Part shown: in pieces, positions 23,050 to 30,432 of the stretch
Layout: each line of letters begins with the position of its first letter
Numbering within the stretch: position 1 is the first letter of the stretch
From: Escherichia coli
GTDB lineage: Bacteria > Pseudomonadota > Gammaproteobacteria > Enterobacterales > Enterobacteriaceae
Assembly (NCBI RefSeq): GCF_003018255.1
Contig: NZ_CP027440.1
Reading direction: 5' to 3' (one strand)
Length of the DNA: 64,000 bases
Translations under genes and position numbers: made by a program
Notes under the pieces: model-generated
Database searches by the model: none
What the model was told of the DNA's origin: nothing
Seen by the model: the letters and a program-made list of their open reading frames with translations, nothing else

Positions 23050-23062
23050 TGAGAGTAAATAA

Positions 23063-23094
23063 GGGGCGTTCTGGTTGAATGGAACGCCTTGTTT
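23063..23094 (+). terminator. rho-independent terminator after ybbP
   Basis: hairpin ggcgttc...gaacgcc followed by ttgttt. Confidence 0.45.
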
Positions 23095-23477
23095 AAATTA
23101 ATTCTACAATATGTTTCATTGATGATGTTATTGAATTGGTGATTTCCTATCTTTCTATTGCTGATATTAATCTGAATCGGTGGAGTTTAATGATTTTAAA
23201 TATAGCCCTACAAAAATAACTCAGACTAATAAAATCATAAATCATATGCGTTGAATGGATATTATCCATATAGTGAATTTGTTGATAATGAATTCATCTG
23301 TGCTAAAAATGTTAGTTTAATAAAATATTGAAAGTGACCTGTAATAACAGTTGTTGTTGATTGAGAACAAATAAGTTTATGTGAAAAATATATAAATACA
23401 TTAGCTGGTCTTGTGTGTCATTTTATTTTTTTGTTGCTAACACAGGGATATGAACAATAACTAAAAGGGCACTTTAT

Positions 23478-24971
23478 ATGAGCGGAAAACCAGCGGCGCG
23501 TCAGGGAGATATGACTCAGTATGGCGGTCCCATTGTCCAGGGTTCGGCAGGTGTAAGAATTGGCGCGCCCACCGGCGTGGCGTGCTCGGTGTGTCCGGGC
23601 GGGATGACCTCGGGCAACCCGGTAAATCCGCTGCTGGGGGCGAAGGTGCTGCCCGGCGAGACGGACCTTGCGCTGCCCGGCCCGCTGCCGTTCATTCTCT
23701 CCCGCACCTACAGCAGCTACCGGACGAAGACGCCTGCGCCGGTGGGGATTTTTGGCCCCGGCTGGAAAGCGCCTTCTGATATCCGCTTACAGATACGCGA
23801 TGATGTACTGGTACTCAACGACAACGGCGGACGGAGCATTCACTTTGAGCCGCTGCTGCCGGGTGAGGCGGTGTACAGCCGCAGCGAGTCCCTGTGGCTG
23901 GTGCGTGGCGGTAAGGCAACGCAGCCGGACGGCCACACGCTGGCACGGCTGTGGGCGTCGCTGCCGCCGGATATCCGGTTAAGCCCGCATCTTTACCTGG
24001 CGACCAGCAGCGCACAGGGGCCGTGGTGGATACTGGGGTGGTCTGAGCGGGTGCCGGGTGCTGAGGACGTACTGCCAGCGCCGCTGCCGCCGTACCGGAT
24101 GCTTACCGGGCTGGCGGACCGCTTCGGGCAGACGCTGACGTACCGGCGTGAGGCCGCCGGTGACCTGGCCGGGGAAATCACCGGCGTGACGGACGGTGCC
24201 GGGCGGGAGTTCCGTCTGGTGCTGACCACGCAGGCGCAGCGGGCGGAAGAGGCCCGTAAACAGCACACCGCTTCCTTATTTTCCCCTGACACCCCCCGCC
24301 CTCTTTCAGACTCTGCGTTCCCCGACACACTGCCCGGTACGGAATACGGCCCCGACAGGGGCATCCGTCTTTCGGCGGTGTGGCTGATGCACGACCCGGC
24401 ATACCCGGAAAGCCTGCCCGGTGCGCCACTGGCGCGGTACACGTATACGGAAGCCGGTGAACTGCTGGCGGTATATGACCGCAGCAATACGCAGGTGCGC
24501 GCTTTCACGTATGACGCGCAGCACCCGGGCCGGATGGTGGGGCACCGTTATGCGGGAAGGCCGGAGATGCGCTACCGCTACGACGATGCGGGGCGGGTGG
24601 TGGAGCAGCTGAACCCGACAGGCCTGAGTTACCGCTACCAGTATGAGCAGGACCGCATCACCATCACGGACAGCCTGAACCGGCGAGAGGTGCTGCATAC
24701 AGAAGGCGGGGCCGGGCTGAAGCGGGTGGTGAAAAAAGAACTGGCGGACGGCAGCGTCACGCACAGCGGGTATGACGCGGCAGGAAGGCTCACGGCACAG
24801 ACGGACGCGGCGGGACGGCGGACAGAGTACGGCCTGAATGTGGTGTCCGGCGATATCACGGATATCACCACGCCGGACGGGCGGGAGACGAAATTTTACT
24901 ATAACGACGGGAACCAGTTAACGGCGGTGGTGTCCTTGACCCACGATATTCAGACAGTCGTTGTATCTTAA
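23478..24971 (+). pseudogene. rhsD: rhs (RhsD-like) N-terminal portion, interrupted by IS insertion
   Basis: MSGKPAARQGDMTQYGGPIVQGSAGV... Rhs N-terminus and YD-repeat core; frame runs into IS end and stops at 24971. Confidence 0.85.
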
Positions 24972-25849
24972 GTTGACGTTACCCGCTGACGTCGATATTC
25001 CCTTGGTGAGAGATAACCTAACGCACTATGCGGATGGGTTTCATTGTAATGCTCGATCGCCACTGCAAGGTTATGCAATGCCGTTCTTACATTCGGTTTC
25101 GGCATGAACGCGATGTAGTCTTCTTTCATCGTTTTCACGAACCTTTCTGCCATTCCATTGCTCTGAGGGCTACTGACTGCCGTTGTGCAGGGCTCCAGAT
25201 TCAACTCTCTGGCGAACTGCCGTGTTTCATGAGCTGTATAAGCCGAACCGTTATCAGTCAGCCACTGGATTGGCCGTTCCGCTCCTTTATCGCCAAAGCG
25301 TTTTTCTATTGCTCCTAACATGACATCCTGCACCGTTGCTTTGTCATAACCTCCCGTGCTTGCGGCCCAGTCTATGGCTTCACGATCGCAACAGTCCAGT
25401 GCGAACGTGACACGCAGTTTTGCGCCATCATCACAACCGAACTCAAAGCCATCGGAACACCAGCGCTGGTCGCTTTCCTTCACCGATATTCGGCCTTTAT
25501 GTTCCCGCTGCGGCCGTGAAGGTTTGTCATGTAACAACAACAGGTTATTTTCGCTCATTATCCGATAAACGCGCTTTGCATTCACGAACGGCACTCCTTT
25601 GTTACGGGACTGTCGTCTGAGAATGGCCCAGACACGACGATAGCCATATGTCGGCATATCGCTGATGATATCAAGGATACGTGCTAACACTTCCGCATCC
25701 GCAGCCTCATCACATCTGCGACGACGTTTATTCGGCTTATTACCAGATGTTTTCATCCGTTGTGCCAGTTGCGCACGCGACACGCCCAGAATACGGCTTA
25801 CCAGGGTTATTCCTTGTCCGTTGGCAACAAGGGCGCATGCGCTATCCAT
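24968..25849 (-). CDS. IS3-family transposase OrfB (DDE integrase core)
   Basis: 293 aa, recognised as IS2 InsD-like (recalled similarity). Confidence 0.85.
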
Positions 25850-26232
25850 TTTCGCGACTGACCATACTCCACCGCTTCTTTGAGGATCTCAACTTCCATG
25901 GTTTTCTTACCCAGCAAGCGCTGTAACTCTTTTATTTGTTTTATAGCGGCAGCCAGTTCTGAGGCAGGAACGACATCCTCTCCGGCAGCAACAGCAGTGA
26001 GACTTCCTTCCAGATATTGTTTTTTCCACTTAAACAACAGGCTGGGCTGAATACCATGCAAACGCGCCACATGGGACACCGTCATACCGGGTTCCATTGT
26101 CTGCTGAATAATGGCGATTTTTTCCTGAGGAGTTTTACGTTTACGAAGCTCCTGCCCCAGCAAAATTCCAGTCATCTCAAAATTAGCACTAGTAGACATA
26201 TATCCAAGCCTATCTCTTATTTTAAGATACAT
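25807..26232 (-). CDS. IS3-family transposase OrfA (HTH)
   Basis: recognised as IS2 InsC-like (...[10 protein letters not shown]...[13 protein letters not shown]...); overlaps orfB. Confidence 0.8.
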
Positions 26233-26263
26233 CCACTGTCTGGCGTTTCAAGGGGCCGGTTCA

Positions 26264-29038
26264 CAGTTAACGGCGGTGGTGTACCCGGACGGGCTGGAGA
26301 GCAGCCGGGCATATGATGAGCTGGACAGACTGGTATCGGAGACATCGCGCAGCGGGGAGACAGTACGCTACCGCTACGATGACGTGCACAGTGAGTTACC
26401 GGCGACGACAACGGATGCGACGGGCAGCACCCGGCAGATGACCTGGAGCCGCTACGGGCAGTTGCTGGCCTTCACCGACTGCTCGGGCTACCAGACCCGC
26501 TATGAATACGACCACTTTGGTCAGATGACGGCGGTCCATCGTGAGGAAGGCATCAGCACGTACAATACCTATAACCCGCGCGGCCAGCTGGTCAGCCGGA
26601 AAGACGCACAGGGCCGTGAAACGCGGTATGAATACAACGCCGCAGGCGACCTGACTGCCGTTATCACCCCGGACGGCAACCGGAGCGAGACACAGTACGA
26701 TGCGTGGGGAAAGGCGGTCAGCACCACGCAGGGCGGGCTGACGCGCAGTATGGAGTACGATGCTGCCGGACGTGTCATCAGCCTGACCAACGAGAACGGC
26801 AGTCACAGCGACTTCAGCTACGATACGCTTGACCGGCTGGTACAGCAGCGCGGCTTTGACGGGCGGACGCAACGTTATCATTATGACCTGACCGGAAAAC
26901 TCACGCAGAGTGAAGATGAGGGGCTTGTCATCCTCTGGTACTACGATGAATCGGACCGTATCACTCACCGCACGGTGAACGGCGAACCGGCAGAGCAGTG
27001 GCAGTATGATGGCCACGGCTGGCTGAGAGAAATCAGCCACCTGAGCGAAGGCCACCGTGTTGCCGTCCACTATGGCTACGACGATAAGGGCCGTCTGACC
27101 GGGGAGCGCCAGACGGTGGAGAACCCGGAGACGGGGGAACTGCTGTGGCAGCATGAGACGAAACAGGCATACAACGAACAGGGGCTGGCAAACCGCGTCA
27201 CGCCGGACAGCCTGCCGCCGGTGGAGTGGCTGGCCTATGGCAGCGGTTATCTGGCGGGCATGAAGCTGGGCGGGACGCCGCTGCTGGAGTACACGCGCGA
27301 CCGCCTGCACCGGGAGACGGTGCGCAGCTTCGGCAGCATGGCAGGCAATACAGCCGCATATGAACTGACCAGCACTTACACCCCCGCAGGCCAGTTACAG
27401 AGCCGGCACCTGAACAGCCTGGTGTTTGATTGTGACTATAACTGGAATGACAACGGCGACCTGATGCGCATCAGCGGCCCGCGACAGACGCGGGAATACG
27501 GCTACAGCGCCACGGGCAGGCTGGAGAGCGTGCGCACCCTCGCACCGGACCTGGACATCCGCATCCCGTATGCCACCGACCCGGCGGGCAACCGGCTGCC
27601 GGACCCGGAGCTGCACCCGGACAGTACACTCACAGTGTGGCCGGATAACCGAATCACCGAAGACGCGCACTACCTGTACCGTTACGATGAATACGGCAGG
27701 CTGGCGGAGAAGACGGACCGCATCCCGGCGGGTGTGATACGGACGGACGACGAGCGGACCCACCACTACCACTACGACAGCCAGCACCGCCTGGTGTTCT
27801 ATACGCGGATACAGCATGGCGAGCCACTGGTCGAGAGCCGCTACCTTTACGACCCGCTGGGCCGCCGGACGGGTAAACGGGTGTGGCGTCGCGGGCGTGA
27901 CCTGACAGGATGGATGTCGCTGTCGCGTAAACCGGAGGAGACGTGGTACGGGTGGGACGGCGACAGGCTGACGACGGTGCAGACTGACAGCACGCGTATC
28001 CAGACGGTGTACCAGCCGGGAAGCTTCACACCGCTCATCCGCATCGAAACAGACGTGACCGAACTGGAGAAAGCGCAGCGGCGGAGCCTGGCGGAGAAGC
28101 TCCAGCAGGAAGGGAGCGAGGACGGACACGGCGTGGTGTTCCCGGCTGAACTGGTGCGGCTGCTGGACAGGCTGGAGGAAGAAATCCGGACAGACCGCGT
28201 GAGCAGTGAAAGCCGGGCGTGGCTTGCGCAGTGCGGGCTGACGGTGGAGCAACTGGAAAAACAGGTGGAGCCGGAATATACACCGGCGCGAAAAGTTCAT
28301 CTTTACCACTGCGACCACCGGGGCCTGCCGCTGGCGCTTATCAGCGAAGACGGCAATACGGTGTGGAGCGCGGAGTATGATGAATGGGGAAACCTGCTTA
28401 ATGAGGAGAACCCGCATCATGTGTATCAGTCATACCGTCTGCCGGGGCAGCAGCATGATGAGGAGTCGGGGCTGTACTACAACCGGAACCGGTACTACAA
28501 TCCGTTGCTGGGACGATATATTACTCAGGACCCGATTGGGCTGGCGGGGGGATGGAGTCTGTATGCGTATCCGCTGAATCCGGTGAATGGTATTGATCCA
28601 TTAGGATTAAGTCCTGCAGATGTAGCGTTAATGCGAAAAAAAGAACAATTAAACCATCAAAGAGCATGGGATATATTATCTGATACTTATGATGATATGA
28701 AGAGATTAAATTTAGGTGGGACTGATCAATTTTTCCATTGTATGGCATTTTGTCGAGTGTCTAAATTAAATGACGCTGGTGTTAGCCGATCAGCGAAAGG
28801 GCTGGGTTATGAAAAAGAGATTAGAGATTACGGGTTAAATATGTTCGGTATGTACGGCAGAAAAGTAAAGTTATCCCATTCTGAGATGATTGAAGATAAT
28901 AAAAAAGACTTGGCTGTAAATGAACATGGGTTGACATGTCCATTAACACAAGATTGCTCAAATAGATGTATTGATTATATTAATCCAGAGCATAAAAAAA
29001 CGATAAAGGCTTTACAAGATGCTGGCTATCTCAAGTAA
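26264..29038 (+). pseudogene. rhsD: rhs C-terminal portion: YD-repeat core, DPxGL boundary, variable toxin tip
   Basis: reading frame resumes ...[14 protein letters not shown]... immediately after the IS; no native start codon. Confidence 0.85.
28610..29038 (+). other. Rhs C-terminal variable (toxin) domain, unrecognised family
   Basis: begins just after DPLGL (about 28595-28609); sequence turns abruptly AT-rich; His/Cys-containing ...[10 protein letters not shown]...[11 protein letters not shown]... Confidence 0.5.
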
Positions 29039-29048
29039 CATCTCAAAG

Positions 29049-29510
29049 ATGGTAATATTTATTTTTGCTATTATAATCGTTGTTTTTTTATGCGTGACTA
29101 CTTATCTTTATTTACACAAAGATGAATCTCTTGTAAGTAAGCATTACATAAACTATATGGCAATACCAGAAAGTGATGGGGTTTTTACATGGCTCCCAGA
29201 TTTTTTTCCGCACGTAGCGGTGGATATATCAATATCCACAAATGTAGAAGATGATTATTTTTTTTCTTATTTTTCCCTAACAATCGATGATGGGGGGAGG
29301 TTTAAGAAAACATTGACTGTGAGGGCCAGGGAACAAGTGGCGAAAATCGTATCAGAGAATGATCCAGATACAAAAAAAGTGTGGTGTAAATATGGTAAAA
29401 TACCAGGGCAAGGGGATAGCGTAAACCTTTTTTTTGTTGGTGAAATTAATGTTACGCATTATTTTATAACAAATATTGGAGCTGGGTTACCTGATGCTTG
29501 TGCAGAGTAA
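29049..29510 (+). CDS. putative Rhs immunity protein (hypothetical, N-terminal TM helix)
   Basis: AT-rich ORF directly after rhs stop; start taken at MVIFIF. Confidence 0.5.
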   Translation: MVIFIFAIIIVVFLCVTTYLYLHKDESLVSKHYINYMAIPESDGVFTWLPDFFPHVAVDISISTNVEDDYFFSYFSLTIDDGGRFKKTLTVRAREQVAKIVSENDPDTKKVWCKYGKIPGQGDSVNLFFVGEINVTHYFITNIGAGLPDACAE

Positions 29511-29877
29511 TTGCTTGAATTAAGAGTCTATCCCATATCGAAGTCGTCAACTTCGTAGTGAGGAAAAGTATAATCCCTGACTGAGAAAAGACATGTCGGC
29601 TATTGTGTAAAGCCATATAGCTCAGACGATGAATATCTACTCGTATTCAGTTGTTTATTGAGGGTGAGTTCCGACCCTGAAACAACAAATAAAATGAACA
29701 GCCAGAGAGTTTACATAGAATTGCACTGGTCTTTTACGATATCTGACATTGTGTAATACATATTCAGCCATGCATTAATTAAAATGTTACGTGTTTAATG
29801 TGAGTCCCTATCTGAAAATAAATAATCCTTCCGGATTAAAATAAATTCTCGCCGGGAAAGAAAGAGGAAATAAACCA

Positions 29878-29975
29878 TTAGCGGAAAACCAGCGGCACGC
29901 CAGGGTGACATGCCCCAGTACGGCGGCCCGATAGTCCAGGGTTCAGCGGGGGTACTGATAGTCGCGCCGACTGCA
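29878..29975 (+). pseudogene. orphan Rhs N-terminal fragment
   Basis: DNA near-identical to rhs 5' end (encodes ..PAARQGDMPQYGGPIVQGSAGV..) but ATG mutated to att. Confidence 0.5.
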
Positions 29976-30024: not shown

Positions 30025-30432
30025 TCAGTATCGTCTTTTGAGATTCTCAAGGTTATGGAGTAACCAGACAGAACGGACACCACTGTCGGAGATAAAAACC
30101 CCCTGTTTACGCAGCTCGTTGCTGGCCCGGTGCTGACCATGTGTCGGGAAAGCGACGGCGTAATCAACAACAGCCTGTTCAATTGCCTCATCGGTACGGT
30201 TCTTAAGGTTAGGAGCGCGGCGACTACGATTAATCTGCGCATCCACACCGCCTTCAGCGGCCAGTTCGCGGTAACGATAAAACGTATCACGCGAAACGCC
30301 CATGATTTTACAGGCTTTTGATACGTTGCTGAGTTCTTCAGCCAGATTGAGCAAACCGGCTTTGTGTTTGATGACGGGATTGGCAGTATGAAGCATGAGA
30401 GTTACCTCTTGTTTTGGATAAGGATTCGACAC
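30025..30432 (-). pseudogene. transposase N-terminal (HTH) remnant
   Basis: 135 aa ORF with HTH transposase-like N-terminus (..ACKIMGVSRDTFYRYREL..) and no catalytic domain. Confidence 0.5.

Follow-up and report, generated by a model that had tools for sequence, protein, structure and literature searches.

Serum amyloid A (SAA), Wnt, TelC, PTDSS, and VanZ have been united in the Lipocone superfamily, whose members share a site made up of a His on helix 2, a Glu on helix 3, and an Asp on helix 4, along with further conserved positions (Burroughs, Nicastro & Aravind, eLife 2025, PMC12419801). Two characterized enzymes of the superfamily act on phosphate-linked lipid head groups (PMC12419801). 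One member family, prok-SAA, was named as a polymorphic-toxin tip that is delivered by a type VI secretion system (T6SS) and has membrane-anchored immunity partners; for this family, the cleavage or exchange of phosphate-linked lipid head groups is a prediction only (PMC12419801). The published Lipocone immunity proteins are all membrane proteins or lipoproteins, and animal SAA was proposed to descend from a bacterial toxin (PMC12419801). The SAA fold is also a proposed ancestor of Wnt. Here, we describe a prok-SAA tip and the adjacent gene ybbD at the rhsD locus of Escherichia coli, in a stretch of 64,000 nucleotides from contig NZ_CP027440.1 (assembly GCF_003018255.1), which we refer to as the window.

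Two other effector-immunity pairs bear on how such a tip might act. BteO-BtiO is a T6SS pair from Bacteroides fragilis (He et al., PNAS 2025, PMC12541434; PDB 9UU0). BteO exerts its toxicity only from within the periplasm (that of E. coli included), and it causes elongation, blebbing, and lysis (PMC12541434). It was reported to be nonenzymatic and to bind the C-terminal domains of OmpA, which the immunity protein BtiO mimics, and the substitutions R143A, H144A, H167A, E168A, D187A, and D191A each abolish its toxicity (PMC12541434). Only peptidoglycan hydrolase and amidase activities were assayed in that study, with no lipid-linked substrates, and the paper makes no mention of SAA, Wnt, Lipocone, TelC, or lipid II (PMC12541434). 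The second pair, TelC-TipC, belongs to the type VII secretion system of Streptococcus intermedius. TelC is a lipid II phosphatase of the same superfamily as the tip (PMC12419801); its toxicity is limited to sites outside the cytoplasm, and the immunity protein that counters it is membrane associated.

At the rhsD locus of the window, the DPLGL codons that close the Rhs core (28595-28609) are followed by 142 open codons (SPADV...GYLK) and a stop codon at 29036-29038, and the next open reading frame (ORF) is ybbD. The features that matter most are as follows.

28610-29038, plus strand: toxin tip of 142 amino acids plus stop, a bacterial serum-amyloid-A-like (prok-SAA Lipocone) domain.
29019-29510, plus strand: ybbD, predicted immunity protein of 163 amino acids (NF011298, PF26610), intact in the window.
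29258-29265, plus strand: T8 tract inside ybbD, seen in the sequence and compared with K-12 by alignment and with Sakai by translation.

The initial annotation had described an abruptly AT-rich extension of about 140 amino acids past DPLGL, which is what we found. The tip has a GC content of 0.345 and the next ORF one of 0.350, compared with 0.619 in the rhs core and a window average of 0.516. At the composition of the tip, a stop codon is expected every ~12 codons, and the probability of an open run is ~5e-6 for 143 codons and ~8e-7 for 163 codons. Because such long open runs are improbable in DNA this rich in AT, the tip and the downstream ORF did not arise by chance.

The tip is a bacterial homolog of serum amyloid A and a member of the prok-SAA Lipocone family. 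When searched alone, it matched the Pfam SAA family (PF00277) at E values of 2.6e-4 to 5.7e-4 (20.7 to 21.8 bits) and had no match in NCBIfam. With phmmer against the PDB, SAA ranked first at an E value of only 0.18, and a word-indexed homolog search returned close enterobacterial copies only. Since these single-sequence searches gave weak matches or none, we turned to a family profile. Among 1.84 billion cluster representatives searched by profile, 148 relatives were recovered at E < 1e-3. The SAA-like domain ended no more than 27 residues from the C terminus in all 100 matches that covered most of the domain, and Rhs_assc_core lay directly before it in each of the 10 long matches checked. 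A family alignment comprised 48 sequences that were 22 to 51% identical to the window tip. Among these, 33 matched Pfam SAA at E ≤ 1e-3 (best, 3.3e-24), and the profile of all 48 detected solved SAA chains in the PDB at an E value of 2.5e-14.

Structure prediction, a check that the initial annotation had proposed, pointed the same way. An AlphaFold2 (AF2) model of the tip (pLDDT 96.8, pTM 0.89) has helices at residues 3-34, 40-52, 57-79, 91-109, and 117-124, with an extra helix at 130-138, and the tip is thus predicted to fold into a soluble four-helix core bundle to which a short fifth helix is added. In a Foldseek search of this model against the PDB, the top 7 matches were all SAA chains (probability 1.0, target-normalized TM score of about 0.7), with nothing else of note.

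Eleven residues are invariant in the 48-sequence alignment (D40, H44, C45, C49, E71, D74, D101, N105, G108, C117, and C121), and the window tip keeps all of them. In the model they fall on helices 2, 3, 4, and 5, as described for the Lipocones, with H44 on helix 2; E71 and D74 on helix 3; and D101, N105, and G108 on helix 4. The codons of these six residues lie at 28736-28738 (His), 28817-28819 (Glu), 28826-28828 (Asp), 28907-28909 (Asp), 28919-28921 (Asn), and 28928-28930 (Gly). A His/Cys signature had been claimed for the tip, and both of its motifs, including FFHCMAFCR, are present. The signature is the family-invariant His on helix 2 together with a twin CxxxC pair, in which Cys45 and Cys49 lie on helix 2 (codons beginning at 28739 and 28751) and Cys117 and Cys121 on helix 5 (28955 and 28967). 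Judging from this Cys pattern on two predicted helices, two disulfides would staple helix 5 onto helix 2.

Three defining features of prok-SAA, namely, homology to PF00277, a four-helix core with a fifth helix, and conserved His, Glu, Asp, acidic, polar, and Gly positions, are therefore found in the tip, which had been described as unassignable to a known Rhs/CdiA toxin family. Near relatives also stand in the published catalog of the family. The prok-SAA list of PMC12419801 holds HAU8267270.1 (Kluyvera), which covers part of relative P0020, 56% identical to the window tip, as well as the close relative WP_074823867.1; the exact E. coli tip sequence was not found in the text supplements of that paper. 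Accordingly, the tip matches a toxin family that is defined and predicted to be toxic but not one that is biochemically characterized. Like the published family, it is a C-terminal Rhs/T6SS toxin tip with a four-helix core plus a fifth helix; His, Glu, Asp, Asp, polar, and Gly positions; and a membrane-anchored immunity partner. The enterobacterial subclade of the tip differs by its added C-terminal helix (residues 130-138), and the immunity domain in the prok-SAA paper has four conserved Cys, whereas YbbD has two. Vertebrate SAA (PDB 4IP8, 6PXZ, and 7ZH7) shares with the tip its fold and the motif series M..AN.IGaDKyFH, then RE, then D..AN..G. In contrast to the tip, SAA is secreted as a free protein that has neither an Rhs carrier nor an immunity partner; the four Cys are missing from it, and the identity over the structural alignment is about 19%.

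From adjacency and covariation, we predict that YbbD is the cognate immunity protein of the tip. Its first ATG (29019) overlaps rhs by 20 nucleotides and yields the 163-residue form annotated in RefSeq. An ORF with an N-terminal transmembrane helix does follow rhs at once, as had been stated, but the length of 153 residues given for it applies only from the second ATG at 29049. The protein scored 373.4 bits against NF011298 over residues 1 to 163 (curated cutoff, 326). PF26610 (YbbD_head) is on record, as a precomputed annotation, for a cluster representative 99% identical to the window YbbD, and a scan of YbbD itself with the Pfam library used here gave no match. A candidate reading of YbbD as YdcD/YbfC, from a weak match to NF007301, was dropped, as YdcD is a separate family (NF050020) and the K-12 ybfO tip is unrelated.

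YbbD has a single strongly hydrophobic N-terminal segment. Its AF2 model (pLDDT 80) consists of a helical anchor at residues 6 to 32 and an alpha/beta domain, and a Foldseek search of the model against the PDB gave no match better than an E value of 0.2 (TM score of about 0.25). Across 30 homologs, there were 64 Lys or Arg and no Asp or Glu residues before the helix, compared with 30 Lys or Arg and 82 Asp or Glu in the 15 residues after it. Three homologs carry a lipoprotein-type signal in place of the helix, and most homologs have two conserved Cys in the soluble domain. The charge bias, the lipoprotein-type signals, and the conserved Cys together place the soluble domain in the periplasm, and YbbD is predicted from these sequence features to be anchored in the membrane by a single helix with its soluble domain facing the periplasm. 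To survey the pairing, we used four divergent tips, 37 to 51% identical to the window tip, all of them Rhs fragments or orphans from metagenomes and from the genomes of other enterobacteria. A YbbD homolog was the next gene, abutting or overlapping, at all four loci. Three of these homologs were flagged as PF26610, and the fourth was recognized by alignment and the shared motif SW..(D)IFP. The survey supports the earlier view of an Rhs toxin tip with a membrane-anchored immunity gene in the usual position.

The tip and YbbD had been put forward as a possibly new toxin-immunity pair, a suggestion that the comparison with other genomes overturns. A 1,401-bp stretch of the window (28400-29800) was covered to at least 80% in 2,723 of 5,426 complete E. 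coli genomes, where the genes are annotated as "RHS element core protein" and as "YbbD family protein" or "hypothetical protein." By alignment, the window tip and ybbD are orthologous to the K-12 orphan pseudogenes ylbH and ybbD, and the rhsD of O157:H7 Sakai (ECs_0560) ends in the same tip in the same arrangement as in the window. The YbbD family is already named, and the likeness of the O157 RhsD to human SAA1 was reported in a 2020 in silico paper on enterohemorrhagic E. coli (EHEC). The pair is thus a known one, the common ylbH/ybbD (O157 RhsD) module, and its toxin family is published.

K-12 RhsD has a tip of its own with the immunity gene ybbC, and the ylbH-ybbD pair sits directly downstream of these two. 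The initial annotation was right that the window tip differs from that K-12 tip, but K-12 has the window's tip and ORF as well, as orphans ~1 kb downstream. The K-12-type ybbC-ylbH junction was present in 1,845 genomes, and given the 2,723 carriers, roughly two-thirds hold the tip as an orphan. The remaining carriers presumably hold the SAA-like tip as the main tip, like the window. The K-12 and O157 alleles share with the window the locus (ybbP ... selU/mnmH) and the downstream gene, and their tips are identical to the window tip at 131 to 132 of 143 residues, with 11 to 12 nonsynonymous changes. Unlike the window, where the T8 tract gives an intact ybbD of 163 amino acids, K-12 and Sakai each have a T7 tract (K-12, L002 at about 10030; Sakai, L012:36236-36496). 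The K-12 gene is broken by the one T missing from the T8 run, and the frameshift leaves an 86-residue "head," which is what Pfam YbbD_head and NF011297 model. Both lengths are common protein clusters, with the 163-residue form the largest.

The module also occurs beyond this locus. In the enterobacterial assembly GCA_003324795.1 (L005:1832-6183), a 51%-identical SAA-like tip with a YbbD homolog lies in an array of orphan Rhs tips and immunity genes that also holds Ntox16-like, DUF6714, and TseH with Imm58. The SAA-like tip/YbbD module moves between tip arrays.

The order of genes at the rhsD locus of the window is ybbA, ybbP, rhs, ybbD, ylbI, ylbG, selU/mnmH, allS, allA, and allR. Here, rhs is not one uninterrupted gene.

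23478-24933, plus strand: 5' part of rhs (codons 1-485), with a DUF6531 domain and YD repeats and at most a faint PAAR-like start.
24934-26263, minus strand: IS3-family (IS2-like) insertion that splits rhs, recognized by the alignment gap versus an intact allele, transposase ORFs, and IS2-like terminal repeats.
26264-28609, plus strand: 3' core part of rhs, comprising the YD-repeat shell and the Rhs-associated core and closing with DPIG-(18)-DPLGL.

The 5' part matched NCBIfam RHS_core positions 1 to 486 (1,027 bits), and Pfam recognized DUF6531 (E value of 5e-18) and four RHS_repeat copies, along with a weak PAAR_motif match over 18 residues. The 3' part continues with RHS_core positions 486 to 1261 (1,657 bits), YD_repeat, and TIGR03696 (Rhs_assc_core, residues 701-778). 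The RHS_core model, broken at profile position 486 by the insertion sequence (IS), stops exactly at the last Leu of DPLGL, which is residue 778 of the 920-residue ORF at 26276-29038. Three hallmarks of an Rhs/YD-repeat polymorphic toxin are present: YD repeats, a core ending in DPxG-(18)-DPxGL, and a variable tip after it.

When an intact 4,203-bp allele of another strain is aligned to the window, it covers 23478-24933 and 26264-29038, with ~1,330 bp in the gap, and its bases 1 to 1447 are 97% identical to the 5' part. The IS element (~1.33 kb) contains two overlapping minus-strand transposase ORFs (25807-26232 and 24968-25849). On each side it has one copy of a 19-bp direct repeat, CAGTTAACGGCGGTGGTGT, made up of rhs sequence (24915-24933 and 26264-26282). 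IS3-family elements usually give duplications of only 3 to 5 bp, shorter than the 19-bp repeat at the ends of this element. Since rhs is split by the element, the N-terminal part with DUF6531 and YD repeats is separated in this genome from the shell and tip. Toxin delivery is probably disabled here by the insertion, and the intact ybbD can still protect this genome. Other E. coli strains carry an intact rhs with an intact ybbD of 163 amino acids, and the Sakai rhs has no such split.

Three further observations concern the flanks of rhs. Directly upstream of its start codon lies a very AT-rich stretch (GC of about 0.28; 23050-23450). Downstream of ybbD, ylbI is a 96-bp remnant of an rhs 5' end (29877-29972, plus strand) that encodes ...KPAARQGDMPQYGGPIVQGSAG..., and ylbG (30031-30396, minus strand) is a shortened helix-turn-helix transposase-like gene. 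Both ylbI and ylbG are leftovers of earlier rearrangements at the rhsD locus.

How the tip might act is best considered for an intact allele. On balance, and by a slender lead over doubt, we favor a toxin that cleaves lipid head groups in the periplasm and is blocked by YbbD. The Rhs shell would cleave itself at DPLGL, and the released tip would pass via the T6SS into a neighboring cell and work in the periplasm, where two disulfides can form. There, its His-Glu-Asp pocket would cut a phosphate-linked lipid head group. The likeliest substrates would be undecaprenyl-(pyro)phosphate-linked cell wall precursors, as for the related toxin TelC, with the outcome that envelope synthesis would be blocked and the cell would lyse. 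In sibling cells, YbbD would bind and block the tip on the periplasmic side of the inner membrane. We favor cleavage of lipid head groups because the polar residues stay invariant even between very distant families and because the two characterized superfamily enzymes perform such chemistry. Action in the periplasm is supported by the topology of YbbD, by the membrane or lipoprotein nature of Lipocone immunity proteins, and by the restriction of TelC toxicity to sites outside the cytoplasm. TelC serves as the template for the enzymatic mechanism proposed here; it differs from the tip in clade and secretion system, and our profile and Foldseek searches gave no direct sequence or structural match between the two, whose link is the published superfamily only.

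Several observations weigh against this account. Delivery by the T6SS is inferred, and the PAAR match in rhs has an E value of only 0.1. BteO, the only characterized close structural relative of the tip, was reported to be a noncatalytic binder of the OmpA C-terminal domain. The clade motif sNxxGR in helix 4 reads VNEHGL in the tip, which keeps the Asn and Gly but not the small residue or the Arg. The ratio of nonsynonymous to synonymous substitution rates (dN/dS) between tip alleles is about 0.4 on only 18 to 19 substitutions, such that purifying selection is not clear. In Sakai, ybbD is frameshifted beside an intact Rhs with the same tip, which is awkward for a strongly self-toxic effector; either the 86-residue head suffices, or the toxin is not deployed, or the toxin is weak. 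Finally, no experiment on the toxicity of the tip, ylbH, YbbD, or RhsD was found in the literature searched, which excluded subscription-only papers.

The tip is structurally similar to BteO, and the same fold, compartment, and immunity logic would also fit a tip that does no catalysis and instead binds OmpA domains as BteO does. We consider this the less probable course, though one that merits serious attention. Like the tip, BteO has its essential residues in register with the invariant H, E, D, and D: in weak alignments, R143/H144, H167/E168, D187, and D191 coincide with tip H44, E71, D97, and D101. The register extends to N195 and G198, which match N105 and G108, so that both proteins have the same 4-4-3 spacing over the D, D, N, and G positions. 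BteO is moreover a T6SS effector that acts in the periplasm, the compartment and route inferred for the tip, and human SAA is reported to bind E. coli OmpA. Yet the tip family and BteO show no significant similarity in sequence (hhalign E value of 0.11, probability of 0.5%), although that alignment uses the same register, and BteO was absent from the family-profile search of the PDB at E ≤ 10. Unlike the tip, BteO stands alone as an effector and has a membrane helix of its own. BtiO mimics the OmpA C-terminal domain, whereas neither OmpA-like folds nor BtiO were among the PDB matches of the YbbD model. Furthermore, these polar residues do not vary between families that have very different partners, a pattern more in keeping with catalysis than with a single binding interface, and the assays behind the nonenzymatic view of BteO did not extend to lipid-linked substrates. 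The enzymatic and OmpA-binding mechanisms both put the target of the tip in the cell envelope.

A second E. coli Rhs tip (L003:400-996), the one paired with YdcD, lies upstream of ydcD (L003:980-1462) in strain DETEC-S792 and contains RHC..MC, HE, D..NN..G, and C...C. By hhalign, it matched the SAA-like family with a probability of 80% (E value of 1.4e-5). Its top sequence match in the PDB was BteO (E value of 0.14), in an alignment that pairs RH with RH, HE with HE, and D..NN..G with D..NN..G. The ydcD-linked tip may be another Lipocone-type tip, one closer to BteO. The residue pattern suggests that the essential residues of BteO look like a Lipocone site. It is conceivable, if somewhat short of an even chance, that the tip, vertebrate SAA, and BteO share one groove or active site, a link made in neither source paper. 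If so, BteO, and by extension the tip and perhaps SAA, would be an enzyme with a lipid substrate that was never assayed. Alternatively, the supposed catalytic pocket of SAA-like proteins would be an OmpA-binding surface, which would explain the binding of SAA to OmpA.

The remaining explanations fare worse. The module could be an evolutionary relic, in which E. coli has ceased to use the tip as a weapon and mostly carries it as an unexpressed orphan or inactive passenger beside a decaying ybbD. We think this improbable, even though the tip is an orphan in about 1,845 of the 2,723 carrier genomes, its dN/dS is about 0.4, ybbD is frameshifted in K-12 and O157 Sakai, the short YbbD of 86 residues is a common protein cluster, and rhs is disrupted by an IS element in the window. 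The alleles of the window, K-12, and Sakai each retain the full set of 11 family-invariant residues; the tip ORF remains open in AT-rich DNA; and intact rhs occurs with intact ybbD in other strains, the full-length form being the largest cluster. Orphan tips can reportedly be reactivated by recombination in Salmonella (Koskiniemi et al.), which also counts against a relic. The 2020 EHEC paper suggested a host-directed mimic of SAA that modulates inflammation or aggregates, on the strength of the structural likeness to human SAA1. This is very unlikely: a membrane-anchored immunity-type gene is conserved beside divergent tips, Rhs toxins of many bacteria, metagenome sequences among them, carry the SAA-like family, commensal and environmental E. 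coli commonly have the tip, and the descent proposed in the literature runs from bacterial toxin to animal SAA. Least credible of all is a previously unknown His/Cys toxin family, as the initial annotation suspected, read as zinc binding or nuclease-like. The tip alone has no NCBIfam match and a weak Pfam match, as such a family might, but the strong homology to SAA at the family level contradicts it, and an SAA-like toxin family is already published. The four invariant Cys form a twin CxxxC on two predicted helices, a pattern of helix-stapling disulfides and not a metal site, and on these grounds we rejected this candidate.

As a discovery, the locus adds little, given that the module is present in half of the complete E. 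coli genomes, that both the likeness to SAA and the toxin family are published, and that the immunity gene has Pfam and NCBIfam models. Its value lies elsewhere. SAA is among the major proteins of the acute phase, and two papers from 2025 imply opposite mechanisms for its relatives, a lipid-head-group enzyme and a nonenzymatic OmpA binder. The ylbH/ybbD pair offers a test bed in which a close SAA homolog and its cognate immunity protein occur together in E. coli, where standard genetics and lipid biochemistry can be applied. It would be the simplest system in which to decide between enzymatic activity and OmpA binding for SAA-like domains.

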